From: Candidatus Omnitrophota bacterium | GTDB taxonomy: Bacteria; Omnitrophota; Gorgyraeia; Zapsychrales; Fredricksoniimonadaceae | Length of the DNA: 64,000 bases | Direction: 5' to 3' | Assembly: GCA_016201795.1 (NCBI GenBank) | Contig: JACQCF010000027.1 | Span: 45,454-109,453 of the forward strand | Shown: piece by piece, positions 1,172-51,351 of the stretch | Numbering within the stretch: position 1 is the stretch's first letter | Layout: each line of letters opens with the position of its first letter | Notes under the pieces: model-generated | Databases searched by the model: none | What the model was told of the DNA's origin: nothing | What the model saw: only the letters and a program-made list of their open reading frames with translations | Translations under genes and position numbers: made by a program

Positions 1172-2391
1172 AAAAAGTCCTGTTTATTTTTTTAGTGGTG
1201 GTAGCCTGTGGCATAGCTGTTGCAGCCATTGCCCAAGTAACCCAAAAAGGAAATCTGTCATCGGAAATGATACGGGTGGCGATTGTTCGCGATGCAAGGG
1301 AAGCGTACTTGTCCATTGAAGGACAATACCGTCTGCGCGATGCCAACACCGGTAAAGTTGTCGGGCAGGGACTAAGACTGGTTCGCTCCAGGATTCGACT
1401 TTTAGAGAAGGGAATTTTAGCCGGCCTTGATGTGTATCCGGTGGCACGACTGATCATTGAACCTGTCAGGGATGCTTCCATTATTGTCAATAATCACCGT
1501 TTCCGGGGAACTGTTACGCTTGTACGCACGGGACCGCATCACATTACAGTGGTTAATGGCATCAATCTCGAAGATTATGTCAAAGGGGTTTTATTCCACG
1601 AGGTATCTAACCATTGGCCCATGGAAGCCTTAAAAGCCCAAGCGGTGGCAACCCGTACTTATGCTTTGTATTCTGTCAATCCAGCCAGTAAAGATTATGA
1701 TGTCACCAATGATATTTATTCTCAAGTGTATGGCGGCAGAGAATCAGAACGTTACCGCACGGGGCTTGCGGTTGATCGCACGGCCGGAGAAATTTTAGTT
1801 TATCAAGGCAAGGTTTTGCCGACCTATTTTCATGCCACCTGTGGCGGAATGACCGAAGATGCTAAAGAGCTGTGGCCAAAGATTGATTTGAGCCCTTTGC
1901 GAGGAGTACCGTGCATGTTTTGTCAAGACTCACCGCATATGCATTGGAAGAAAAATTTTCGTCTGCGCGATATTCAGCTGGTTCTTAATAAGCATGGTTA
2001 TAAAATGGGATTGATGAAGGATATCGGTATTGTTGAACGCGACCGCAGTGACCGTATAAAAACTTTAAAAATTACCAGCCGCGACGGCCAAGAATTAACC
2101 ATCTCTGGTAAAGATTTCCGTGATATCGTCGGTCCCAACGCTCTTAAAAGCAATAATTATGAAATAAGCATGCAGGGCTATTATGTGGATTTTGTCGGCA
2201 AAGGCTGGGGGCATGGGGTGGGTTTATGCCAGTGGGGGGCTCGCGGTATGGCCCTGCAGCAATTTACCTACAAACAAATTTTAGCCTATTATTACCCCGG
2301 CTCTCAACTGATGGATTATCATGATCTGCTAAAATCTGCCTTACCTGTCAAAGAAGAAAATTCCGCCAAGCCAGTGACGCAGGTTAAATAA
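1168..2391 (+). CDS. SpoIID/LytB domain protein (amidase enhancer-like)
   Basis: Signal peptide. C-terminal YYVDFVGKGWGHGVGLCQWGARGMA is the SpoIID/LytB signature. ATGA overlap with the upstream gene. Confidence 0.75.
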   Translation: MKKVLFIFLVVVACGIAVAAIAQVTQKGNLSSEMIRVAIVRDAREAYLSIEGQYRLRDANTGKVVGQGLRLVRSRIRLLEKGILAGLDVYPVARLIIEPVRDASIIVNNHRFRGTVTLVRTGPHHITVVNGINLEDYVKGVLFHEVSNHWPMEALKAQAVATRTYALYSVNPASKDYDVTNDIYSQVYGGRESERYRTGLAVDRTAGEILVYQGKVLPTYFHATCGGMTEDAKELWPKIDLSPLRGVPCMFCQDSPHMHWKKNFRLRDIQLVLNKHGYKMGLMKDIGIVERDRSDRIKTLKITSRDGQELTISGKDFRDIVGPNALKSNNYEISMQGYYVDFVGKGWGHGVGLCQWGARGMALQQFTYKQILAYYYPGSQLMDYHDLLKSALPVKEENSAKPVTQVK

Positions 2392-2394
2392 TGC

Positions 2395-4583
<2,189 letters not shown>

Positions 4584-4584
4584 T

Positions 4585-5286
4585 ATGCTTCGTTTCGATA
4601 TCATTACTTTATTTCCTAAAGTTTTCAACGGTATTTTCAACGAGTCCATGATCAAAAGGGCCAAGGAGAAGAAAAAAGTCCTTATTAAAATCCATGATTT
4701 GCGCGATTATTCTTCGGATAAGAAACGGCACAGCGTGGATGACAGGCCTTTTGGCGGAGGTCCGGGCATGGTATTAAGCCCGCAGCCTTTGTTTGATGCG
4801 GTCAAAAAAATTAAAGGCCGCAAAAAAGCCAAGGTCATTTACGTCACCCCTTCGGGAGTGCCGTTTTCACAATCTCATGCAAAACGCTTGACGAAGCATA
4901 AAAATTTGATTATTATCTGTGGCCATTACGAAGGTATCGACGAGAGGGTACGCGAACATATCGTTGATGAGGAGTTTTCCATTGGCGATTATGTTTTAAC
5001 CGGCGGCGAAATTCCCGCCATGGTCATGGTCGATGCCATTACTCGTTTAATCCCGGGTGTTTTAGGTAAAGACGAGTCGCTGGTGAATGAGAGTTTTGAA
5101 GCGGATTTATTAGAAGGTCCCCAGTACACCCGGCCGGCTGATTTTCATGGCCTGAAAGTACCACCAGTGTTATTATCGGGACATCATCAACAGATAGCAC
5201 AATGGCGTCGGGCCCAGGCAGTTCAACATACTCAAAAAATCAGGCCTGATTTAGCAGGGAAGTGGAGGCAGCATCGTGGTCAGTAA
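4585..5286 (+). CDS. trmD: tRNA (guanine37-N1)-methyltransferase
   Basis: [11 protein letters not shown]...[12 protein letters not shown]...[30 protein letters not shown] knot motifs. Confidence 0.9.
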
Positions 5287-5653
5287 TCTGGAAAAAATTA
5301 AAATTATCGATGAGAAACAGATCCGCAAGGATCTGCCTCATTTTGACGTCGGTGATACCATTAAAATGAGAATTAAAGTGAAGGAAGCTGAAAAGGTGCG
5401 TATCCACCCGTTTGAAGGCACGGTGATTAAAAAAACTGGCCATGGTTTAGGAAAGGCTTTTACCGTGCGCAAAGTTTCCTTCGGCGAAGGAGTGGAAAGA
5501 ACTTTCCCGGTTCATTCGCCGGTGATTGAAAAAATTGAAGTGGTTGCCAAAGGGGTTGTCAAACGCGCCAAATTGTATTATTTGCGTGAACGTTTGGGCA
5601 AAAGTGCCCGCGTTAAGGTGGATCAAACACATTCGACTACGCTCAGTGTTTGA
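5276..5653 (+). CDS. rplS: 50S ribosomal protein L19 (GTG start overlapping trmD stop)
   Basis: [31 protein letters not shown]...[21 protein letters not shown] is canonical bL19. Conserved trmD-rplS synteny. Confidence 0.9.
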
Positions 5654-5710
5654 TCCTGAGTGTAATCGAAGGATCAAACCCAGGCTGCTTAAATTTAGTG
5701 CCGGCCATTT

Positions 5711-6355
5711 ATGGTTGAGCATCTCTTAAATTATGAAACGGAAGCCCAAAATCAAGGCTTCCGTTTTGTTTTAGGAGTAGATGAGGCCGGCCGCGGTCCT
5801 TTGGCCGGGCCGGTGGTAGCCGCGGCTGTATGTTTAAAAAGTTTTGATTTTACCTGCCGTATCGATGATTCCAAAAAAATGACGCCTGCTGCCCGCCAAA
5901 AAGCTTTTGATCAGATTTCTCAAAAGGCTTATGTGGGTCTGGGACTGATTTCTGAGACAGCCATTGATCAGGTTAATATTTTAAATGCTACTTTTTTAGC
6001 CATGGAAGCCGCTGTACGGCAGCTGGTGGACCAAATCCGCAAGGAGATCAGGTCAGAGGTTTTGACGGATCAGGTTAAGATTTTGGTTGACGGCAACAGG
6101 TTTAAAACCGATTTGCCTTATGCCTATCGAGGTATTATTGGTGGAGATACCAGTAGTTTATCCATTGCCTGCGCTTCGATTATAGCCAAAACGTATCGCG
6201 ATCGTATGATGGAGCATTATGACCGCATTTTTCCCCAATACGGGTTTAAAGCCCATAAAGGTTATCCCACTGCTTTGCATAAATTGGCCATTCTGCGATA
6301 CGGTCCCTCGATTATTCATCGTAAAACATTTCAAGGGGTTCTACCAGAAAGTTGA
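5711..6355 (+). CDS. rnhB: Ribonuclease HII
   Basis: VLGVDEAGRGPLAGPVVAAAV active-site motif. Length 214 aa. Confidence 0.9.
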   Translation: MVEHLLNYETEAQNQGFRFVLGVDEAGRGPLAGPVVAAAVCLKSFDFTCRIDDSKKMTPAARQKAFDQISQKAYVGLGLISETAIDQVNILNATFLAMEAAVRQLVDQIRKEIRSEVLTDQVKILVDGNRFKTDLPYAYRGIIGGDTSSLSIACASIIAKTYRDRMMEHYDRIFPQYGFKAHKGYPTALHKLAILRYGPSIIHRKTFQGVLPES

Positions 6356-6368
6356 TGAAATATCAATT

Positions 6369-6400
6369 GACAAGTTTCATGTCGTATTATATGATATTTC
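6369..6400 (+). promoter_or_regulatory. Candidate sigma70-like promoter (TTGACA...TATTAT/TATGAT) ahead of the pilin-tra-like operon
   Basis: ttgacaagtttcatgtcgtattatatgat in the 128-nt AT-rich gap after rnhB. Also a small ATTGAT-TATAA-ATCAAT palindrome at ~6401-6417. Confidence 0.3.
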
Positions 6401-6483
6401 TAAAATTGATTATAAATCAATAATTCCGGTTCCCCCATCGGAAAAACAGCAGTAAAAAATTTCCCCCAAATAGTAATTTTTTT

Positions 6484-7368
6484 ATGTCCAACAACCTGCG
6501 CTCCTACAAACAGGGATTCTCTTTAATTGAGCTTTCCATTGCTATGGCCATTATTGCCATACTGGCTTCTTCTATTGTTCCCATAGCCATTCGTTCCCTA
6601 CAAATTAGAGCAGGGGAAAAGACCGCTTTAGAAATGGCCATGATTCAAGAAGCTAGCCGTAATTATTACATTGATCATAAAGCTTGGCCCGCAGATATTC
6701 CTACTCTTCAAGCCCAAGGTTATTTGAATCCAAATTGGACGGCATTGAACCCTTGGCATAATGCTTATCAAATCTCCAGCACCAATTTGGCTTTAACCGT
6801 AAGTACCGATGTGCCGGCTCAATGGGCTAATTTGGTCGCCAGTCATTTACCGGCAGCGATAGTTAATAATGCCAATGTATCCAGTACACTTTCCTCACCA
6901 GGGGGATCTGGCTTGCAGCCAGGAGTGATTGTGGCATGGTCTGGATCCATTGCTAATATTCCAGCAGGCTGGGCTTTGTGCGACGGTACCAACGGCACGC
7001 CGGATTTGAGGGATAAATTTATTGTCGGTGTAAGGCAAGATGACGCGGGAATTTCCAAAAGTAATATTATGGGGACTTTATTGCAAACTGGTGGATCGAC
7101 AACGCACAATCATGGCGGACAAACAGGCAGTCATACCTTAACCATAGCGGAGATACCACCGCATGATCATGCTGAAAATTACTGGGTATCCATGGATTTA
7201 TCCAACAGTATAGGACTCTATGGCAATAGTCCTGGCGGACATGCTGGTATGTTTAACCCTAGACCAAGAACTGAAATGACCGGTGGCGGCCAAGGTCATA
7301 CTCATACAATTTCGAGTGACTACAATGTACCACCGTTTTACGCGCTGGCGTTTATTATGAAATTATGA
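6484..7368 (+). CDS. Type IV prepilin/pseudopilin N-terminus fused to a phage tail-collar (T4 gp12/MdpB-like) C-terminal domain
   Basis: KQG|FSLIELSIAMAIIAILA is a class-III prepilin peptidase site with Glu+5. Residues 40-70 (EASRNYYIDHKAWPADIPTLQAQGYL) are GspG/PilE-like. The C-terminus (IPAGWALCDGTNGTPDLRDKFIVG...GGSTTHNHGGQTGSHTLTIAEIPPHDH...GGGQGHTHT) matches the tail-collar family motif (P.GW..CDG......L..F..G) with His-rich repeats. Confidence 0.7.
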   Translation: MSNNLRSYKQGFSLIELSIAMAIIAILASSIVPIAIRSLQIRAGEKTALEMAMIQEASRNYYIDHKAWPADIPTLQAQGYLNPNWTALNPWHNAYQISSTNLALTVSTDVPAQWANLVASHLPAAIVNNANVSSTLSSPGGSGLQPGVIVAWSGSIANIPAGWALCDGTNGTPDLRDKFIVGVRQDDAGISKSNIMGTLLQTGGSTTHNHGGQTGSHTLTIAEIPPHDHAENYWVSMDLSNSIGLYGNSPGGHAGMFNPRPRTEMTGGGQGHTHTISSDYNVPPFYALAFIMKL

Positions 7369-8267
7369 GCATTCTTCTCTTATTATTTTTTATTCTCAGC
7401 AACAACGTATGGGCGCAGGAAAAAACTACCCACGTCACTAAGAGTATTTTGGAATTGTCAGCTATGGCGGACTTTAAGTGCGTTCAAGCTAAACCTGTGG
7501 GCGCATGTCCTAAACCGAATCGAGAGCCGCCCATTGGTGTTAAAATGCGTTTCTGGCAGCCGGAGCTTTTTATGGAAACGGTTAAGATGCCGGGGGATTA
7601 TGTCATTGCTGAATATGGAGCGACTCTGGGGTCTTTAGCTAAGACGACGATTAAAACCGAACTTGAGCTAGTCACCCACATTAGACCTTTAACAGTGACC
7701 AGCGGCAGTTCTTTTAATAGTTTAAGTAACAGTAATTTGCAATTCAATGAAGTGCACCTGTACGACTTTCCCTCGGATGATATTTTTGATGCGCTTTGTT
7801 CAGATACTCCTAATACAACTTTGGGTATTCGCTATTTTTCAGAAGTGGATAGTATTACCTGGCGACGAGGAGATATTGAAAAAGAGCTTCCACAAAGCCT
7901 GGTTGCCGAAAATATAGGCGCACAATGTAATTATTTGGTGCTAGGAGCTACGGCGGGCCAGTGTATGAAAAGCTGGGGGCCGCTTTATCCTCGTCAGGGC
8001 TTTGTCATTACTCCCAGCGGACTGGTGAGCTCTATTGTTGATGCTTTGCGGGCCGTGAGTATTGCCTCAAATCCTTTCCCCCATTTAGTAGAGGCTCCAC
8101 TGAGCTTTCAGCCCAATATCCCTATTGATAAAGTGCAAATGGTTTATCCTGTTAAAACATCCTGCTTTCCTATAGGTCAAAACCCATCCCAGTGGGAGGC
8201 TGATAAACAATCCAAGGACGGTCATTATGTATGGATTTTCTGGCATCGACGGGAGTGCTGTATTTAG
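7365..8267 (+). CDS. TraU-like periplasmic protein (F-type T4SS pilus-assembly family), secreted
   Basis: Signal peptide ...NNVWA|QE. ACPKPNREPPIGVKMRFWQPE...MPGDYV resembles the TraU CP.PPP..R.IGL...YWEP..L...PGC block as recalled from F-plasmid TraU. Also EVHLYDFP (F-plasmid TraU has HVHWYKYP) and C-terminal QMVYPVKTSCFPIGQNP (TraU has MVNMYPDSGQCHPFG). ATGA overlap with the upstream pilin gene. Confidence 0.5.
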   Translation: MSILLLLFFILSNNVWAQEKTTHVTKSILELSAMADFKCVQAKPVGACPKPNREPPIGVKMRFWQPELFMETVKMPGDYVIAEYGATLGSLAKTTIKTELELVTHIRPLTVTSGSSFNSLSNSNLQFNEVHLYDFPSDDIFDALCSDTPNTTLGIRYFSEVDSITWRRGDIEKELPQSLVAENIGAQCNYLVLGATAGQCMKSWGPLYPRQGFVITPSGLVSSIVDALRAVSIASNPFPHLVEAPLSFQPNIPIDKVQMVYPVKTSCFPIGQNPSQWEADKQSKDGHYVWIFWHRRECCI

Positions 8268-8601
8268 AAGGCGGGTCTTAACCACCTTGTTTCTTTTGAT
8301 GACAGCCAATCTCTACGCGGCCAATCCTTATCATCTAGGCCAGGTGGATTATTTTCATGATAGACCCATCACTAAAGATACGGAAGATCAAAATCAGTCT
8401 TTTGACTGGCGCGAACCAACAGTTGCTTCCGATGGTCATATAGCGTCTTACACTCCACCGGGGCCGATGCTGACGTTATTGGAAAACCCCACGCCCGAGA
8501 ATGCCAAAGTCTATCTTGCCTGGCAGAAACAAAAGGTACAGAAAATCTTCAAGGCCCAAGAACTGATCGATCAAGTGCTCAAAGAAGGAAAGCCGCTGTG
8601 A
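8227..8601 (+). CDS. Short secreted protein resembling the TraF/TrbB N-terminal region (no thioredoxin domain)
   Basis: RRR plus hydrophobic signal peptide. LENPTPENAKVYLAWQKQKVQKIFKAQELIDQVL fits the TraF N-terminal P..N...Y..LQ......F..A pattern. 124 aa. Its 5' end overlaps the TraU-like gene by 41 nt and its stop overlaps the next start (GTGA). Confidence 0.3.
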   Translation: MYGFSGIDGSAVFRRRVLTTLFLLMTANLYAANPYHLGQVDYFHDRPITKDTEDQNQSFDWREPTVASDGHIASYTPPGPMLTLLENPTPENAKVYLAWQKQKVQKIFKAQELIDQVLKEGKPL

Positions 8602-9854
8602 TTTACTTATTATTTTTATTGCTGATTATTTCTCAAATTTCTTGTGCTGATATTTTTTCTAAAACGACAGATCAAACCTCGTTAGATGAAATGCTGGCCA
8701 AAGATTCCAGGAATTTTTATTATCGCGGCAGTTTTGACTACAATGCTTACGCTCAGCCTGAACCATCCTATGATTTGGAAAAACAGAGAATATCTTTAGG
8801 ATGCAACCGTTATGATTTCCATGAAAGTCTCAAGAATCTTTTCACCCGGCCCGAATTCAACAGCATAGAACTCCAAACTTTGATGACACAGCTTTCAACT
8901 TCCAAGCTTCTGGTTTGGGAATACAGTTCTCCAACGCTGGCTGACCTTTATAAGCATTTGGACACCGTAGGCCATTTGCGTTTGGCCATCCGTTATCATC
9001 AGTGTGAGGATTTGGAAAAAGCCGTGGATGACCCCATCGTTAAATTAAGAAAACAGGCTGTGATGGATTGTATGAAGCACCAGAAAGGCGCCAATGATAC
9101 AGATGATATAGACATTGCTTTCAAAGCCTGTTTTGATCATCTTCATGATGCTTTTAATTTTGAAAAGCCCTATGAGAATCTGGAGGACCCCGCAGATGGA
9201 AGATTTCAACTTACGGGAACAATTAATGTTACAGAAAAGACGTTAAAACGAATTGACCAAAACGGAGAAAACCTAGAGATGGTTGAGAAAATTATTCCCA
9301 ATGTCTATGTTTCAGTTAATTCTGTGCGTATCAAAGGGCCCGACATACAAAGTCGTCAATTAATAGCCCAATACCGTACCAATTTTCTTTCAAATCTTAT
9401 AGAGATGATCAAAGAATACAGGCAAAATAGAACCGTCAACCCTCAGACTTTATCATCCTTATCGGTTTTTGGCGTACCTATGACCGAAGGCCAGGTGAAA
9501 AATATTGCCATGTTGGATCATACGACTGGTTATTTAGCTATGCATAAGATCGCTTCAGAACTAGCTTATCTTAAGACCATCGATCAATATACAAAAGCCT
9601 CTGAAATGTTAAATCGAGTGATGGCGCATCCAGCCATTGAGCCCGGATATAAGACATTATTAAAAAACAGCCATGATTTTGTTCAAGAGGAAATCGTTGC
9701 TCTCAGACAGGAGAAAGAACGTCTAAGCCAATATGCCAACACCATGCACGTTATTTTAGATGAAGCGGACAGGCAACGGCTTAAAACTCTGGCGTTGATC
9801 AAGGAAGAATCTATCGGCGAAGAACAAAAAGGTTTGTTGAAGATTAATCCATGA
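8598..9854 (+). CDS. Secreted 418-aa protein, possibly TraH-like (tentative), with C-terminal coiled coil
   Basis: GTG start after GAAGGAAAG. Signal peptide IISQISCA|D. It has an N-terminal LDEMLAKD...YRGSFDY...ISLGCNRYDF segment and a C-terminal helical/coiled region. F-plasmid TraH, from memory, has FFNKLG...GGSLY...INAGCGGIDAYLG and likewise a coiled-coil C-terminus. Weak resemblance only. Confidence 0.25.
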   Translation: MIYLLFLLLIISQISCADIFSKTTDQTSLDEMLAKDSRNFYYRGSFDYNAYAQPEPSYDLEKQRISLGCNRYDFHESLKNLFTRPEFNSIELQTLMTQLSTSKLLVWEYSSPTLADLYKHLDTVGHLRLAIRYHQCEDLEKAVDDPIVKLRKQAVMDCMKHQKGANDTDDIDIAFKACFDHLHDAFNFEKPYENLEDPADGRFQLTGTINVTEKTLKRIDQNGENLEMVEKIIPNVYVSVNSVRIKGPDIQSRQLIAQYRTNFLSNLIEMIKEYRQNRTVNPQTLSSLSVFGVPMTEGQVKNIAMLDHTTGYLAMHKIASELAYLKTIDQYTKASEMLNRVMAHPAIEPGYKTLLKNSHDFVQEEIVALRQEKERLSQYANTMHVILDEADRQRLKTLALIKEESIGEEQKGLLKINP

Positions 9855-10228
9855 GCACTCAATTATTAGGAAATTATGGGGAAGAGCACGCTTGCAGGTA
9901 CCTGCAAGATAAAGGCTACAAGATCTTAGAGAAGAATTTCCGCAACAGGATGGGGGAAATTGATTTAATTGCTCAAGACAAACACACTGTATGCTTTATT
10001 GAAGTCAAAACCCGAAAATCCCTTCATTGCGGCCAGCCTTATGAATCGGTACATCCTCACAAACAGCGTAAAATCGTGCAGGTGGCTTTAACTTATTTGA
10101 AATACCGTTACCGTACGGTTGAGGTCCTATCTCGATTCGATGTCATTTCTATTTATTATCCTGCCGATGGCATCCCGGAGTTAGAACACATCGTCAATGC
10201 TTTTGATTTAACCTATTTAAGTCATTGA
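9851..10228 (+). CDS. yraN: YraN/UPF0102 family PD-(D/E)xK endonuclease-like protein
   Basis: NYGEEHACRYLQDKGYKILEKNFRNRMGEIDLIAQDKHTVCFIEVKTRKS shows D...EVK motifs typical of UPF0102. ATGA overlap with the upstream secreted-protein gene. Confidence 0.8.
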   Translation: MSTQLLGNYGEEHACRYLQDKGYKILEKNFRNRMGEIDLIAQDKHTVCFIEVKTRKSLHCGQPYESVHPHKQRKIVQVALTYLKYRYRTVEVLSRFDVISIYYPADGIPELEHIVNAFDLTYLSH

Positions 10229-10344
10229 CAAACCAGAAATTATCTATTAAACTCCCTTTAAATTTGTTGACGGTTCGTTGTTGTGACCCGTCATCCCGAG
10301 GTAACGAGGGATTTCATTAAAACAGTTTTACCAAGGAGGGTTGG

Positions 10345-10518
10345 ATGGAGAAATTATCTTTTTACGACGTGAAAACCAAGGCAAAATTTGAATCTGATGA
10401 TTATTCCGTCAAAGAAAAAAGCGGACGTTTTTTCGCCGTTACCAAATCCCTCAAAGGCTCGCATGAGTGCTGGCGCGTGTTAAGCAAAGATCAAGCCGCC
10501 AAGCTCAAAAAGAAATAA
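10345..10518 (+). CDS. Small basic hypothetical protein (57 aa), absent from the ORF track because it is under 60 aa
   Basis: ATG 7 nt after AAGGAGGG. MEKLSFYDVKTKAKFESDDYSVKEKSGRFFAVTKSLKGSHECWRVLSKDQAAKLKKK*. Strong SD, lysine-rich tail, sits directly upstream of rsfS. Confidence 0.4.
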   Translation: MEKLSFYDVKTKAKFESDDYSVKEKSGRFFAVTKSLKGSHECWRVLSKDQAAKLKKK

Positions 10519-10524
10519 GCGGGA

Positions 10525-10941
10525 GTGGTTTCTATCCGAAGCAAAGCATTAACTTCCAAACAATTAGCTAGTAAAATTGCTCAATTGGCCGATCATAAGA
10601 AGGCGCAGGACATTGTCATCCTCGATATGCGGGGGTTAGTCAACTTTTGTGATTATTTTGTCTTGGCCACCGGCACTTCTGACCGCCAGGTCAAAGCCAT
10701 TGCCGAAGGTATTTATGAAGGTTTATTGGCTCTTAGCGTGCATGTGCATCGGGGACACAATTTAAAAGGTTTAGAAACAGCCGCCTCGGTGGATGGTTTT
10801 GGCGTGTGGGTTTTGTTGGACATGGGGGACGTGGTCACGCACGTTTTTGAGCCCAATGCGCGGGAATTCTACGGTTTAGAGCATCTTTGGCAGGACGCGC
10901 CCGCCGTTGTCTATAAAGCGCGCGTGAAAAAGAATGTGTGA
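10525..10941 (+). CDS. rsfS: Ribosomal silencing factor RsfS (Iojap)
   Basis: DIVILDMRGLVNFCDYFVLATGTSDRQVKAIAEGI is the RsfS core. GTG start after GGGAG. Confidence 0.8.
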   Translation: MVSIRSKALTSKQLASKIAQLADHKKAQDIVILDMRGLVNFCDYFVLATGTSDRQVKAIAEGIYEGLLALSVHVHRGHNLKGLETAASVDGFGVWVLLDMGDVVTHVFEPNAREFYGLEHLWQDAPAVVYKARVKKNV

Positions 10942-41136: not shown

Positions 41137-41214
41137 CGGGACGTAGCGCAGTTGGATTAGCGCACTTGAATGGGGTTCAAGAGGCCGTGAGTTCAAATCT
41201 CACCGTCCCGACCA
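41137..41214 (+). tRNA. tRNA-Pro (anticodon GGG), CCA encoded
   Basis: Folded by hand. Acceptor CGGGACG/CGTCCCG, D-stem GCGC/GCGC, anticodon stem CTTGA/TCAAG with loop ATGGGGT (G37), T-arm GTGAG-TTCAAAT-CTCAC, 3' ACCA. A TGtgTATAAT extended -10 lies ~20 nt upstream. Confidence 0.85.
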
Positions 41215-47080: not shown

Positions 47081-48646
47081 ATGTCCAGGATTATCATCTA
47101 CGACACCACCTTGCGGGATGGCTCACAAACCGAAGGGGTCTCTTATACCGTGGCCGATAAGCTGAAAATCACCGACAAGCTTGATGAATTAGGGGTGCAT
47201 TACATTGAAGGCGGCTGGCCGGGCTCTAATCCTAAAGACAAAGAATATTTTGAGCGGATGAAATCCCATAAGCTTAAAAATGCGAAGCTGGTGGCTTTTG
47301 GTTCCACCCGTCGTTCAGGTATCAAACCCAAGCAAGATACTAATCTTAATGAGCTCATCGCTTCTCAAACACCGACGGTGACGATTTTCGGCAAAAGCTG
47401 GGATTTGCATGTGAAGGACGTTATTAAAACAACGCTGGATGAAAATCTCAGGATGATTGAAGAGTCCGTGGCTTTTTTAAAAAAACACAAGCGCGAAGTA
47501 TTCTACGATGCCGAGCATTTCTTCGACGGGTATAAACGCAATCCCCGATACGCTTTAAAAACGATTCTCGCGGCGCAAAAGGCAAGAGCGGATTGTATTG
47601 TTTTATGTGATACCAACGGCGGTGCTTTGCCCGAAGAAGTCACTAAAATCGTCAAAGAAGTTAAAAAGAAAATTAAAACATCTTTAGGCATTCATACGCA
47701 CAATGATCAGGATTTAGCGGTAGCCAATTCCTTGGCTGCTATTCATGCCGGTTGTACGCAGGTGCAGGGTACTTTCAACGGCTTAGGTGAGAGATGCGGT
47801 AATGCGGACTTGTGCACCATCATGGCGATTTTGCATACCAAGATGAATAAGAAGTCCATTACACCAAATAAGATCAAATATCTGATGGACGCGTCTTATT
47901 ATATCAGTGAAGTCAGCAATTATACGCTTTCGAACAATCATCCCTTTGTGGGCCATTCGGCGTTTGCGCATAAGGGTGGGGTGCATATTGACGCGATGCT
48001 CAAAAATCCTATGGCTTATGAACATGTCGATCCCGAGGTGGTGGGTAATCACCGTCGACTGTTGACCTCAGAATTAGCCGGCAAAATGCCCATTGTGCTC
48101 AAAGCCCAGAAGATGAATATTGCTCTGGATAAAAATTCGCCCCAGGCCAAAGAAATTATGAAAGAACTGCAGGATAAAGAGTATAGGGGCTATCAATTCG
48201 AGGGCGCGGACGCCTCTTTTGAATTGTTCATGAAACGCCGTTTGAAATTGTATCAGCCGTTTTTTTATTTAGATGGTTTCAAGGTTTATACGGAAAAGAA
48301 GCTCGACGGCAGCGTGAGCGCAGGGGCGACCGTGCGCTTGAGAGTTGACGGCCATGATGAAATGGCCACCATCGAGGGCCATGGCCCGGTGGAAGTTTTG
48401 GATAAAGCCTTGCGCAGTGCTTTGTGCAAATTTTATCCGAATTTGGAACACATGCATTTGTCGGATTATAAGGTGCGGGTGCTTGATACTAAAGACGGCA
48501 CCGCTGCACGCGTGCGCGTTCTTATTGAGTCGCAGGATGAAGGCGATTCCTGGACGACGGTGGGCGTGCATGAAAACATCATCGAAGCTAGCTGGGAAGC
48601 ACTGGTGGATGGCATTGAATACAAATTATTGAAAGATAAAAAATAA
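47081..48646 (+). CDS. cimA: (R)-citramalate synthase / 2-isopropylmalate synthase family enzyme (CimA-like)
   Basis: IYDTTLRDGSQTEGV, HTHNDQDLAVANSLAAIHAG and C-terminal LeuA-dimer regulatory domain. 521 aa. Confidence 0.7.
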   Translation: MSRIIIYDTTLRDGSQTEGVSYTVADKLKITDKLDELGVHYIEGGWPGSNPKDKEYFERMKSHKLKNAKLVAFGSTRRSGIKPKQDTNLNELIASQTPTVTIFGKSWDLHVKDVIKTTLDENLRMIEESVAFLKKHKREVFYDAEHFFDGYKRNPRYALKTILAAQKARADCIVLCDTNGGALPEEVTKIVKEVKKKIKTSLGIHTHNDQDLAVANSLAAIHAGCTQVQGTFNGLGERCGNADLCTIMAILHTKMNKKSITPNKIKYLMDASYYISEVSNYTLSNNHPFVGHSAFAHKGGVHIDAMLKNPMAYEHVDPEVVGNHRRLLTSELAGKMPIVLKAQKMNIALDKNSPQAKEIMKELQDKEYRGYQFEGADASFELFMKRRLKLYQPFFYLDGFKVYTEKKLDGSVSAGATVRLRVDGHDEMATIEGHGPVEVLDKALRSALCKFYPNLEHMHLSDYKVRVLDTKDGTAARVRVLIESQDEGDSWTTVGVHENIIEASWEALVDGIEYKLLKDKK

Positions 48647-48648
48647 AG

Positions 48649-48676
48649 TAGGGGCGGGGTGACCCTGCCCGTACAC
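48649..48676. repeat. Hairpin element copy 2: GTAG-GGGCGGGG-TGA-CCCTGCCC-GTACA
   Basis: 8-bp stem (one G-U) 3 nt after the cimA stop. Same flanks (GTAG...GTACA) and stem ends as the copy at 20609. Confidence 0.4.
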
Positions 48677-48681
48677 CTATC

Positions 48682-51351
48682 ATGATCGATTTATCCGCCC
48701 GCTACAATCCCCAAGAAACCGAAGATAAATGGCTTAAGGTTTGGAAAGCAAGCAATGTTTTTCACGCTGCTGCCAATGTCAAAAAAAAGCCGTTTACCAT
48801 CGTTATCCCTCCGCCTAATATCACCGGTATTTTGCACATGGGCCATGCGCTCAATAATATTTTGCAGGATATCTTAATCCGTTATAAACGTATGAAAGGT
48901 TTTGAGACTTTGTGGATGCCGGGTACGGATCACGCGGGGATTGCTACCCAAAATGTCATTGAGAAAGAATTGGCCAAAGAGGGCAAGAAGCGTCAGGATT
49001 TGGGCCGTGAAGAATTTTTAAAACGCCTCTGGGCCTGGAGACAGGAATACGGGGACACCATTATCCATCAATTGGAAAAATTAGGTTCTTCTTGCGATTG
49101 GTCGCGTACGCGTTTTACCATGGATGAGAATTACAGCCAGGCGGTCAAAGAAGTTTTTGTGCGGCTCTATGAGAAAGGTTTGATCTATCGGGGAGAACGT
49201 ATTATCAACTGGTGTCCGCGTTGTCAAACCGCGCTTTCCGATGAAGAAGCCGAGCATCAGGAAAAAAACGGTAAACTTTATCATATCCGTTATCCGTTCA
49301 AAAATAATCCCAAAGAAGGGGTGATTGTCGCTACCACTCGTCCAGAGACCATGTTAGGGGATACGGCAGTGGCGGTTAATCCCAAAGACTCCCGTTATAT
49401 CAAGCTCATCGGACGAATCCTGGTTCTGCCTTTAGTTGGTCGGGAAATTAAAATTATCGCCGATGATTTTGTTTCTGCGGAATTCGGCACCGGAGCAGTG
49501 AAGGTGACCCCTGCGCATGATCCCAATGATTTTGTTATAGGCCAGCGTCATAAACTGGAAATGATTAACATCATGCATCCGGACGGACGGCTGAATGAAC
49601 AGGCGGGTAAATTTAATGGTTTGGATCGTTTCGAAGGACGCAAACGGGTGATAGCAGCCCTAGATATGGAAGGTTATTTAGTCAAGACCGAAGACCACAA
49701 GCACGCCGTGGGCCATTGTTATCGCTGTGACACGATGGTGGAGCCGTATTTGTCCAAGCAGTGGTTTGTAAAAATGAGCCCCTTGGCTAAACCCGCGCTC
49801 AAGGCTGTCAAAAACGGTACCATTAAAATTTATCCTGAACACTGGCAGAAGGTTTACACCAATTGGATGGAGGATATCCGCGACTGGTGCATTTCCCGTC
49901 AGATTTGGTGGGGCCATCGGATTCCTGTCTGGTATTGTGTGGGAGATGAAGCGTGCCAGTTAAAATGTAAGGAACCTATTGTCAGTAAGACGACACCAGA
50001 ACAATGTCCTCATTGCGGTTCTAAGAATTTACGGCAAGACGAAGATGTACTCGACACTTGGTTTTCCTCGTGGCTGTGGCCTTTTGTTACCCTTGGCTGG
50101 CCTAAGGATAATGCGGATTTGAAATATTTTTATCCCACTCATACTTTATTGACCGCCTCGGAAATTATTTTTTTCTGGGTGGCGCGCATGATTATGGCCG
50201 GTTATGAATTTATGGGCCAGCCGCCGTTTAGCGAAGTATTCATTCACGGTACGGTGCGCGATTCACGCGGCCGTAAAATGTCCAAGTCACTGGGCAATGC
50301 TATTGATCCGCTGGAGATTATTGACCAATACGGGGCAGATGCGCTGCGCTTCAGTCTGATTATCAATTCCGGCCAGGATATTTTTATATCCAAAGAGAAA
50401 TTTGAAATCGGCCGTAATTTTGCCAATAAAATTTGGAATGCCGCACGTCTGATTTTTACCAACTGTGGGCCAGCGCTTGAAGCAGGAGACTATGAAACCT
50501 TAGACGTGAAGGCTTTGGATTTGCCCTCGCGCTGGATCATCAGCCGTTTTTATGAAACATTGGATAAAACATCCAAGGCTATTGAGACATTTCGCTATTC
50601 CGAGGCTGAAAATCTGGTGCAGGATTTCTTTTGGGGTAGTTTTTGTGATTGGTATTTGGAGTTCATCAAGGGTAAATTCACCGATATTCATGTTCAAAAA
50701 ACCGCTTTGTTTATCTTAAAAAATTCTTTGAAACTCCTGCATCCATTTGTGCCTTTTGTCACGGAAGAAATTTACAGCAAGATGAATACTAAAGATAGCT
50801 GTTTATCTGTTGTCTCATGGCCGTCTTTGCCCTGGCCTGTCAGCCAGGACAGGCAAAAGAGTTTGATTGATACAGATGCCTTTGAGCAAATGCAAACGGT
50901 CATTGACGTGATCTGGGCGATTCGCAATATCCGCACCCAGTGGAATGTAAAGCCCCAGGATAGTGTGGACGTTGTGCTTGTGCCAGTCAATCGCCAGCAG
51001 GAGCAATTACTGGAGAAAAACCAGGGGGACATCCAAAGACTGGGCAAGGTCAAGACTTTAACTATTGATTCCAAAGTCCAAACGGTCAAGGATGCCGCCA
51101 GTGTGGTAGTTAATGCTTTAAAAGTGTTTATTCCGCTGGGTGTCTTGGTGGATTTAGCTGCCGAGAAAAAGCGCATGAGCCAGGAGGTAGCCCGGAAGCA
51201 AAAGACCATGGAAGGACTACAAACCCGCTTAAATAACCCCGTCTTTGTGGATAAGGCCCCCCGAGATGTCATTTCCAAGGAAAAAGATCGCCTTAGCGCC
51301 CTTGGAAAAGACGTCAAAGAGCTTCAAACGGTTCTAGCCAATCTAAGTTAA
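48682..51351 (+). CDS. valS: Valine--tRNA ligase
   Basis: PPPNITGILHMGHAL HIGH region, KMSKSLGN, C-terminal coiled-coil. 889 aa. Confidence 0.9.
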   Translation: MIDLSARYNPQETEDKWLKVWKASNVFHAAANVKKKPFTIVIPPPNITGILHMGHALNNILQDILIRYKRMKGFETLWMPGTDHAGIATQNVIEKELAKEGKKRQDLGREEFLKRLWAWRQEYGDTIIHQLEKLGSSCDWSRTRFTMDENYSQAVKEVFVRLYEKGLIYRGERIINWCPRCQTALSDEEAEHQEKNGKLYHIRYPFKNNPKEGVIVATTRPETMLGDTAVAVNPKDSRYIKLIGRILVLPLVGREIKIIADDFVSAEFGTGAVKVTPAHDPNDFVIGQRHKLEMINIMHPDGRLNEQAGKFNGLDRFEGRKRVIAALDMEGYLVKTEDHKHAVGHCYRCDTMVEPYLSKQWFVKMSPLAKPALKAVKNGTIKIYPEHWQKVYTNWMEDIRDWCISRQIWWGHRIPVWYCVGDEACQLKCKEPIVSKTTPEQCPHCGSKNLRQDEDVLDTWFSSWLWPFVTLGWPKDNADLKYFYPTHTLLTASEIIFFWVARMIMAGYEFMGQPPFSEVFIHGTVRDSRGRKMSKSLGNAIDPLEIIDQYGADALRFSLIINSGQDIFISKEKFEIGRNFANKIWNAARLIFTNCGPALEAGDYETLDVKALDLPSRWIISRFYETLDKTSKAIETFRYSEAENLVQDFFWGSFCDWYLEFIKGKFTDIHVQKTALFILKNSLKLLHPFVPFVTEEIYSKMNTKDSCLSVVSWPSLPWPVSQDRQKSLIDTDAFEQMQTVIDVIWAIRNIRTQWNVKPQDSVDVVLVPVNRQQEQLLEKNQGDIQRLGKVKTLTIDSKVQTVKDAASVVVNALKVFIPLGVLVDLAAEKKRMSQEVARKQKTMEGLQTRLNNPVFVDKAPRDVISKEKDRLSALGKDVKELQTVLANLS

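Follow-up and report, generated by a model that had tools for sequence, protein, structure and literature searches.

A pilin-TraU-YraN gene cassette of Omnitrophota as a candidate part of a chimeric type IV pilus/F-type Tra machine

We describe here a five-gene cassette of an Omnitrophota bacterium which encodes a type IV prepilin, a TraU-family protein, two further exported proteins (ORF3 and ORF4) and the YraN nuclease. The cassette lies in a 64-kb window (the whole stretch of DNA that was analysed) from a metagenome-assembled genome (MAG), to which coordinates refer unless another locus is named. The pilin and ORF4 are 100% identical in sequence to proteins encoded on a contig of 200,936 bp in a "Candidatus Omnitrophica bacterium" MAG. 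Six co-directional open reading frames (ORFs) occupy positions 5711-10228 of the + strand, and all six agree in their limits with those listed in a first-pass annotation of the same DNA; the first, rnhB, is a flanking gene and the other five form the cassette. In our view, and with a probability only a little above one half (about 0.55), the cassette makes up the distal portion of a chimeric type IV pilus/F-type Tra envelope machine that is tied to a transformation nuclease and that would probably serve DNA uptake. The components are all of known kinds; it is their combination that is new. We found no description in the literature of TraU-like or TraH-like genes in type IV pilus operons or in Omnitrophota, nor of a pilus operon that terminates in yraN.

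Gene order and hybrid operons in related genomes

The order pilin-TraU-ORF3-ORF4 was found in 18 genome loci, nearly all of them from Omnitrophota MAGs, and reaches down to 34% identity in TraU. Wherever the junction between ORF4 and yraN is visible, the cassette order is accompanied by a stop/start overlap of these two genes (12 of 12 places: the window, loci L001, L003, L004, L022, L024, L025, L026, L027, L028 and L111, and the P0007 contig). The left neighbours vary and comprise rnhB (in the window only), dprA-topA-xerC, T2SSE-T2SSF-minor pilin or TraB-TraV-minor pilins. Judged from these gene orders, the cassette is labile at its left border and fixed at the ORF4/yraN junction. The suggestion of the first-pass annotation that a PD-(D/E)xK protein had been recruited into the module fits this pattern, in which the overlap is kept while the outer genes change on both sides. 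Close relatives (L001, L003, L004, L026, L027, L028 and the P0007 contig) have dprA-topA-xerC, followed by pilin-TraU-(thioredoxin)-ORF3-ORF4-yraN and then by a 57-aa ORF, rsfS, argS and recJ, and they therefore resemble the window on the right side and differ from it on the left. The right-hand order is found in the six numbered loci of this group and not in L024, L025 or L111. The dprA gene is located three genes upstream of the cassette in eight relatives, namely those just listed and L021.

Across the relatives, the genes that accompany the cassette are of two classes. Those of the type IV pilus/type II secretion system (T4P/T2SS) class are a secretin, a PilB-like T2SSE ATPase, a PilC-like T2SSF platform protein, minor prepilins and a prepilin peptidase, while those of the F-type conjugation class are TraC/VirB4, TraG_N, TraL, TraE, TraK, TraB, TraV, TraU, a TraF-like thioredoxin and the TraH-like ORF4. 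As far as gene content can tell, the larger gene set in the relatives is a mixture of the two. A T2SSE-T2SSF-minor pilin series stands upstream of the cassette in L009, L011-L015, L017, L019, L020, L022 and L024; in L024 it is preceded by ThiC and a 153-aa ORF and the cassette is followed by a glycosyltransferase gene, and in L022 a secretin gene lies ahead of T2SSE-T2SSF-pilins. A secretin gene is also present upstream in L019 and in L111, and a prepilin peptidase gene in L020. The F-type genes are most numerous in L025 (positions 2266-10769 of that locus), where ferrochelatase-TraG_N-90-aa ORF-TraL-TraE-TraK-TraB-TraV-minor pilin precede a cassette with yraN and a gene for a 1598-aa protein follows it. 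L109 (2-4021) consists of TraB-TraV-pilins-TraU-thioredoxin-ORF3 and runs to the end of its contig. In L111 (671-13341) the order is ORF6N-TraC-112-aa ORF-secretin-513-aa ORF-175-aa ORF-T2SSE-T2SSF-pilin, then the cassette with yraN and then HicAB-FadL. This single operon includes both a VirB4-family TraC_F_IV (30% identity to F TraC) and a PilB-family T2SSE and, by its gene content, is a chimera of a type IV secretion system (T4SS) and a type IV pilus.

The PilB-like ATPase, PilC-like platform protein, prepilin peptidase and secretin that are present in the operons of relatives are absent from the 64-kb window, which also contains no TraC, coupling protein or relaxase; among the retrieved loci TraC was found in L111 only. 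In the genome described here the proximal genes of the machine appear to lie elsewhere, trmD-rplS-rnhB having been brought secondarily to a position upstream of the cassette.

The F-type genes could instead belong to a conjugation-like apparatus for DNA export or contact-dependent transfer, that is, a domesticated or mobile T4SS of the F type or of integrative and conjugative elements (ICEs), with type IV pili for mating-pair formation (MPF) and YraN for the processing of DNA. The presence of TraC, TraG_N, TraL, TraE, TraK, TraB, TraV and TraU in the same operons across L025, L109 and L111 points in this direction, as do the best-scoring families of TraU and ORF4 (the ICE families TIGR03756 and TIGR03755) and the ORF6N and HicAB proteins encoded upstream and downstream, respectively, in L111. 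However, no relaxase, coupling protein (T4CP), integrase or oriT-like feature was found in any locus, housekeeping genes form the flanks, inheritance looks vertical, and ICE transfer is independent of YraN (Hardy et al., bioRxiv 10.1101/2024.02.06.579203). We consider this explanation improbable.

The cassette-encoded proteins

The last gene of the cassette, yraN (9851-10228, + strand), encodes a PD-(D/E)xK nuclease of family UPF0102 (PF02021; 106 bits against a cut-off of 23.6, E=1e-30), which also exceeds the threshold of NF009154 (119.9 against 109). The catalytic triad, D38, E51 and K53, is intact and is invariant in 10 orthologues. In Legionella, Acinetobacter and Vibrio natural transformation requires YraN, an endonuclease of single-stranded DNA (ssDNA) whose partner at the recombination D-loop is the ComM helicase (Hardy et al., bioRxiv 10.1101/2024.02.06.579203). 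On the basis of that work, YraN is the D-loop nuclease of natural transformation and should not be counted among the generic housekeeping proteins. Induction of yraN in A. baumannii goes together with that of dprA, comEA and every type IV pilus operon (bioRxiv 10.64898/2026.02.23.707608).

The first gene (6484-7368, + strand) encodes a type IV prepilin with a C-terminal domain like those of phage tail fibres and collars. The N_methyl family matches at 31.4 bits (cut-off 21.2) and TIGR02532 at 32 (cut-off 16.3), and the class III motif KQG↓FSLIE is present. In an AlphaFold2 (AF2) model the N-domain (residues 1-140) has a predicted local distance difference test score (pLDDT) of about 90 and consists of a helix (residues 14-65) and a β-sheet; Foldseek matches this domain to the pilins 1ay2 and 6xxd with probabilities of 0.99-1.0. 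The C-domain, for which the model is of low confidence, matches the tail fibre of phage Pa223 (9nxk; E=1e-4, 32% identity). The prepilin part of the earlier name 'pilin-collar' is therefore secure at the family cut-offs, while the collar part is below threshold in Pfam (PF07484, 19.8 bits against 24) and is backed by the Foldseek match; homologues carry precomputed Collar matches, and the NCBI name of an identical protein is 'tail fiber protein'. From the model and these matches, the protein is probably an adhesive or tip pilin. The pilin family comprises 3,336 database clusters at E<=1e-3, compared with 40 TraU and 19 ORF4 homologues in a similar search, so that most copies of this pilin probably lie outside cassettes of the present kind.

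Such a pilin raises the question of a pilus for adhesion or predation, serving attachment to host or prey cells, in which yraN would be a historical passenger locked in by promoter and translational coupling. In this view the operon would at some time have come to lie upstream of yraN, which would then have grown dependent on the promoter of the operon and on the coupling, so that the two could no longer part. Phage tail fibres, to which the pilin head is similar, bind receptors; type-4a pili of Omnitrophota have been read as factors in symbiosis or predation (Seymour et al. 2023), and attachment would be consistent with the epibiotic lifestyle proposed for Omnitrophota. This rival to DNA uptake is a serious one, if in our judgement doubtful, and we return to it below with the distribution of yraN.

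The second gene (7365-8267, + strand) encodes a periplasmic protein which is a true member of Pfam TraU (PF06834; 100.2 bits against 26.5, E=2e-28, covering profile positions 29-304 of 306), and the earlier label 'TraU-like' is fully supported. The more specific families are matched below their cut-offs: NF010297, the equivalog of F TraU, at 28 against 298, and TIGR03756, from ICEs, at 64.3 against 188. Identity to plasmid TraU is about 23% over 85% of the length, and an exact look-up of the TraU of the window gave no record. The protein has a signal peptide, and cysteines 48, 267 and 299 are invariant in 17 homologues, with C39, C145 and C298 nearly so. Homologues were found only in Omnitrophota-type MAGs, apart from a few bins labelled "Planctomycetales", Ca. 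Elulimicrobium and one Woesearchaeota. We note that the last of these (L023:1-6920, assigned to 'Candidatus Woesearchaeota archaeon'), on which genes for pilin-collar, ORF4-like and TraU-like proteins are found, is probably a mis-binned bacterial contig.

ORF3 (8227-8601, + strand) encodes a small exported protein of 124 aa. It has the conserved motifs VDYF and PTPENA..YL.WQ, and in related loci that cover this stretch a homologue is flanked by ORF4 on one side and, on the other, by TraU or by the thioredoxin gene next to TraU. No family was matched in Pfam (E<=10) or NCBIfam, and a Pfam scan of 17 homologues gave noise. When the family was aligned with F TraF by hhalign only the signal peptides aligned. 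The earlier designation 'TraF-N-like' accordingly finds no support in the Pfam search or in this alignment. A gene for a thioredoxin-fold protein (Thioredoxin_2, with a weak match to TraF) varies in occurrence between TraU and ORF3 among close relatives: it is present in L001 (8866-9393), L004 (8875-9393), L027 (8845-9363) and L109 (3349-3873), overlapping its neighbours by about 41-50 nt, and is absent from the window, L003, L026 and L028. We considered whether ORF3 had arisen by a deletion that fused the thioredoxin gene to ORF3. This was rejected: the alignment shows no more than a variable N-terminal extension and signal peptide, and relatives simply either have the thioredoxin gene or lack it.

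The 418-aa product of ORF4 (8598-9854, + strand) is exported; it has a signal peptide and, in the AF2 model, helices at residues 308-343 and 349-416 that form a long C-terminal coiled coil. The name 'TraH-like' given to it earlier is weakly founded. In its favour, TIGR03755 matches at 27 bits (cut-off 270; E=1.8e-6) and remote members of the ORF4 family barely reach Pfam TraH at 25.5 bits; against it, ORF4 itself has no match to Pfam TraH (PF06122) even at E<=10, and hhalign of the family with F-plasmid TraH gave E=0.3 over the signal peptide only. There was no match in the PDB and, by tblastn, none in plasmids. The family comprises 161 clusters among 1.84 billion representative proteins. On these scores we regard ORF4, weakly, as a distant relative of TIGR03755/TraH.

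Transcription unit and history of the locus

The genes of the cassette are tightly packed. Stop/start overlaps join pilin to TraU (ATGA, 7365), ORF3 to ORF4 (GTGA, 8598) and ORF4 to yraN (ATGA, 9851). The earlier statement that every junction is of this type holds for these three and not for TraU/ORF3, where the overlap is 41 nt rather than ATGA: the TraU stop codon TAG is at 8265-8267 and the ORF3 ATG, with AGGA upstream, is at 8227. This ATG is the sole sensible start of ORF3, and the gene calls of relatives give an identical 41-nt overlap.

The gap of 128 nt between rnhB and the pilin gene contains, as had been proposed, a putative σ70-like promoter, TTGACA-17-TATGAT (6367-6395, + strand), which matches at 11 of 12 positions. 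Its -35 and -10 boxes are kept in L001, L003, L026 and L004, in which the upstream gene is xerC or a methyltransferase. A conserved 5' leader (6406-6443, + strand), possibly an operator or an RNA element, follows. It begins with a perfect palindrome of 15 nt, TTGATTATAAATCAA (6406-6420), which is kept in five loci and is predicted to form a helix; no copy beyond this one, as might mark a regulon, was found in the window, the count being no better than chance. The second part of the leader (6424-6443) is a short hairpin, TTCCG..CGGAA, with a C-rich loop. Relatives have TTCGA..TCGAA in its place, and the stems compared by eye differ by paired changes; RNAalifold did not call the hairpin. An Rfam scan of the window matched a single tRNA at 41137 and nothing in the leaders. 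We also note a CCCCC run after the hairpin and that there is no obvious Shine-Dalgarno sequence before the pilin ATG.

Downstream, a second putative promoter, TTGACA-17-TAAACT (10225-10253, + strand), takes its -35 box from CATTGACA, a sequence that includes the stop codon of yraN. The last 23 nt of yraN through this -35 box are invariant in seven loci, and a conserved AAGGAGG Shine-Dalgarno sequence and the 57-aa ORF follow. The second promoter would be the start of the next transcription unit, giving the downstream housekeeping genes a promoter of their own. Since a conserved promoter and leader lie upstream of the cassette and a conserved promoter at the yraN stop codon, yraN is placed as the terminal gene of the cassette unit. 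Positions 6367-10228 may accordingly be read as one self-contained transcription unit comprising promoter, leader, pilin, TraU, ORF3, ORF4 and yraN. Neither the gap between rnhB and the pilin gene nor that between yraN and the 57-aa ORF showed a terminator-like site.

The first-pass annotation had seen in the four genes upstream of yraN an insert between rnhB and yraN, more AT-rich than its flanks. That rnhB and yraN form a conserved block is borne out: in 23 of the 63 metagenomic loci that show what lies upstream of yraN, rnhB is its direct neighbour there, often after trmD-rplS. The question is whether a four-gene remnant of a conjugative element was recently inserted into a trmD-rplS-rnhB-yraN block. 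The four genes do lie exactly between two genes that are commonly adjacent, ORF4 and yraN are slightly low in GC content and the pilin gene is atypical in codon usage (z=-2.9 against 51 other genes of the window). These differences are marginal overall and the z-scores modest: the four-gene block has 43.0% GC compared with 44.8 and 46.2% in the flanks, with low values confined to ORF4 (39.4%, z=-2.2) and yraN (40.7%) while the pilin, TraU and ORF3 genes are at background. Moreover, yraN itself is as AT-rich as ORF4. Relatives carry the four genes directly 5' of yraN without rnhB upstream, with little compositional contrast, and the window is nested among them; the promoter and leader are common to these relatives. 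No integrase, tRNA or flanking repeat was found at the cassette borders, as had been noted before, and a search for repeats gave only short chance matches. A recent insertion is thereby largely refuted, and we hold it to be very improbable.

The polarity of the change was examined with neighbour-joining trees. In a tree of pilin, TraU, ORF4 and YraN rooted with L022, L024 and L025 the window falls inside the xerC-type group and was placed outside it in 0 of 200 bootstraps; a tree of argS, recJ and rsfS nests the window likewise. The sister of the window is L109 (100 of 100 bootstraps), in which TraU is 87% identical and yet TraB-TraV-minor pilins are upstream. No relative examined has rnhB upstream of the cassette. 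Because the window is nested in the xerC-type clade, the rnhB adjacency is best taken as a derived rearrangement. In a YraN tree of low resolution the rnhB-linked sequences L047, L048, L057, L063 and L071 are sister to the cassette-linked clade, which suggests that yraN was captured once by a pilus/Tra operon. On the evidence of these trees and gene orders, the cassette appears to be old and vertically inherited within one Omnitrophota subclade. Nor is there support for the earlier idea that the module had been grafted into a core operon to secure its expression: YraN is encoded within the transcription unit of the module, which has its own promoter and leader, kept where the upstream gene is xerC, and rnhB is upstream in the window only.

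A further explanation concerns the left border alone, where the assembly might be chimeric at the junction of rnhB and the cassette. The arrangement is confined to the window, and the breakpoint would fall in the approximately 11 nt that separate the -35 box from the stop codon of rnhB. However, the 200-kb contig was deposited as a single record, no repeat is present at the junction and left contexts vary in other genomes too; we would be surprised if a chimera were the cause.

As to the surroundings, rnhB (5711-6355, + strand) encodes RNase HII (Pfam RNase_HII, 111 bits, E=6e-32) and is the left flank. On the right, on the + strand, are the 57-aa ORF (10345-10518) and rsfS (10525-10941), followed by argS and recJ and likewise outside the cassette, and the ORFs sampled elsewhere in the window are housekeeping genes. 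The 57-aa ORF (MEKLSFYDVKTKAKFESDDYSVKEKSGRFFAVTKSLKGSHECWRVLSKDQAAKLKKK) has a strong AAGGAGG Shine-Dalgarno sequence and belongs to no Pfam family; its identity among relatives, 86-90%, is above that of its neighbours, and in the close clade of the cassette it is invariably found between yraN and rsfS. An insertion of about 47 nt in the downstream leader (about 10266-10325), bearing a GACGG..CCGTC hairpin, is peculiar to the window. In L001 (1-7007) and L028 (1-7354) the order is leuA-aroE-prepilin peptidase-pspC-aroK-dprA-topA-xerC-cassette, whereas in the window leuA is followed by valS (47081-51351); the differing neighbours of leuA indicate that the genome has been rearranged around this region.

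Proposed mechanism and comparison with known systems

If the cassette does serve DNA uptake, the prepilin would be cut by a prepilin peptidase and assembled into a filament, with its tail-fibre-like head binding the target, either DNA or another cell. TraU, ORF3 and ORF4 would be exported and would form a cysteine-rich periplasmic complex for assembly or retraction, comparable to that of TraU, TraF and TraH in the F pilus. In the F system TraF binds TraH, which in turn contacts TraU, and each of the three influences the extension and retraction of the pilus and the transfer of DNA (PMC7555446). YraN, translated from the same mRNA and retained in the cytoplasm, would cut the RecA/ComM D-loop, such that imported ssDNA is integrated. 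Made together with the pilus and Tra proteins, YraN would in this way hard-wire a DNA-uptake machine to the recombination step of transformation.

Several observations weigh against this interpretation. YraN is dispensable for DNA import itself (Hardy et al., bioRxiv 10.1101/2024.02.06.579203). ComM was not found in the 64-kb window, and neither ComEC, ComEA nor ComM was seen in the window or in any retrieved locus. The proximity of dprA may be coincidental, as dprA and topA are in any case widely paired. A pilin headed by a tail-fibre domain suits cell adhesion no less than DNA binding, the relation of ORF4 to TraH is weak and ORF3 is an orphan. Co-transcription is deduced from gene overlaps and promoter positions alone, the trees are neighbour-joining trees of few genes, and the rnhB junction could be misassembled because the window is part of a MAG contig. 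Finally, yraN and the module also occur apart. In a second Omnitrophota clade (L010-L020) the operon has no yraN and in most loci reads T2SSE-T2SSF-pilins-TraU-ORF3-ORF4; in L010, L016 and L018 ORF4 was not detected and T2SSE-T2SSF lie downstream of ORF3, and HemN, TatC or PIN genes follow the cassette in L019, L020 and L011. Conversely, a clade nested among the linked ones has nrdAB-ferrochelatase-(toxin-antitoxin)-yraN-FadL and no cassette. Since both separate states exist, the link between the cassette and yraN is not obligatory.

The ferrochelatase group deserves comment. In L036 (5163-8782) and L040 (5827-9408) ferrochelatase adjoins yraN with only toxin-antitoxin genes between or beside them, while in L025 (1140-10769) a Tra/pilin block of about 8 kb separates the two, a clean presence/absence polymorphism. 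As the group is nested in the linked clade and the two genes flank the block in L025, the simplest reading seems to be that the block was lost secondarily.

These distributions bear directly on the adhesion pilus with yraN as a passenger introduced above. The occurrence of each without the other, yraN in the ferrochelatase/FadL group and the module in L010-L020, is in keeping with a passenger, and the sister position of rnhB-linked yraN (L047, L048 and L057) to the linked clade fits one historical capture. On the other hand, the ORF4/yraN overlap survives in at least four left and four right contexts, where a neutral passenger should sometimes have been lost or displaced, and the only known role of YraN is in transformation, which begins with a type IV pilus.

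Among known systems, the cassette resembles the TraU/TraF/TraH group of the F-plasmid MPF system (MPF-F) in its true Pfam TraU member and its exported proteins rich in conserved cysteines, and in the TraF-like thioredoxin gene that many relatives have between TraU and ORF3. ORF4 shares with F TraH a signal peptide and a C-terminal coiled coil (PMC7555446) and, in L025, L109 and L111, the company of Tra genes. Unlike the F system, TraU is only about 23% identical, ORF4 is below the TraH and TIGR03755 thresholds with no plasmid match, the pilin is a type IV prepilin and not of the TraA type, and the cassette is chromosomal and vertically inherited with neither relaxase nor coupling protein. The ICE-type T4SS (MPF-G) supplies the best NCBIfam matches, TIGR03756 and TIGR03755, though at 64 against 188 and 27 against 270. 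TraU and TraH have been considered exclusive to conjugation systems of the F-like kind; their relatives inside operons with secretin, PilB, PilC and prepilin genes suggest a general role in filament assembly or retraction.

Type IV and competence pili offer the other half of the comparison, as the operons of relatives encode prepilins with G↓FxxxE, a PilB-like ATPase, a PilC-like platform protein, a secretin and a prepilin peptidase. The cassette differs from type IV filament systems in that its operon contains Tra proteins, which are unknown there, and PilMNOP, ComEC, ComEA and ComM were not identified near it. As in the transformation regulon of A. baumannii, the expression of yraN appears, here from gene arrangement, to be tied to pilus genes; in contrast to that regulon, yraN is physically within the pilus operon and not co-regulated in trans. 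YraN was an orphan (UPF0102) until the work of 2024-2026, and its gene in a pilus operon would be independent genomic support for a role in transformation, extended to an uncultured phylum. For annotation the locus also carries a lesson, namely that insertion should not be concluded from the fact that genes lie between two conserved core genes.

Two known arrangements combine comparable parts. Conjugative elements such as IncI R64, with its thin pilus, and PAPI-1 have added a type IVb pilus to a T4SS, the two being encoded in separate operons of a relaxase-bearing mobile element. The cassette resembles these in joining T4SS parts to a type IV pilus and differs in that its relatives interleave both in one chromosomal operon; such hybrid operons, in places with TraC, TraL, TraE, TraK, TraB and TraV, are a natural model for combining type IV pili and T4SSs. 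The ComB system of Helicobacter pylori is a T4SS for DNA uptake of the VirB type (P-type), without type IV pilins, secretin, TraU or TraH. Like ComB, the cassette would belong to a T4SS-derived machine that lacks relaxase and coupling protein and acts in natural transformation, a DNA-uptake role that for the cassette is proposed from its genes. As a tentative extension, which we put forward as a possibility and not as the expected outcome, Omnitrophota may possess an undescribed machine that interleaves a type IV pilus with an F-type T4SS and that in one subclade is transcriptionally fused to YraN. Such a chimeric competence apparatus, through which these ultra-small, possibly host-dependent cells might acquire the DNA of neighbours or prey and recombine it, would be a functional analogue of ComB.

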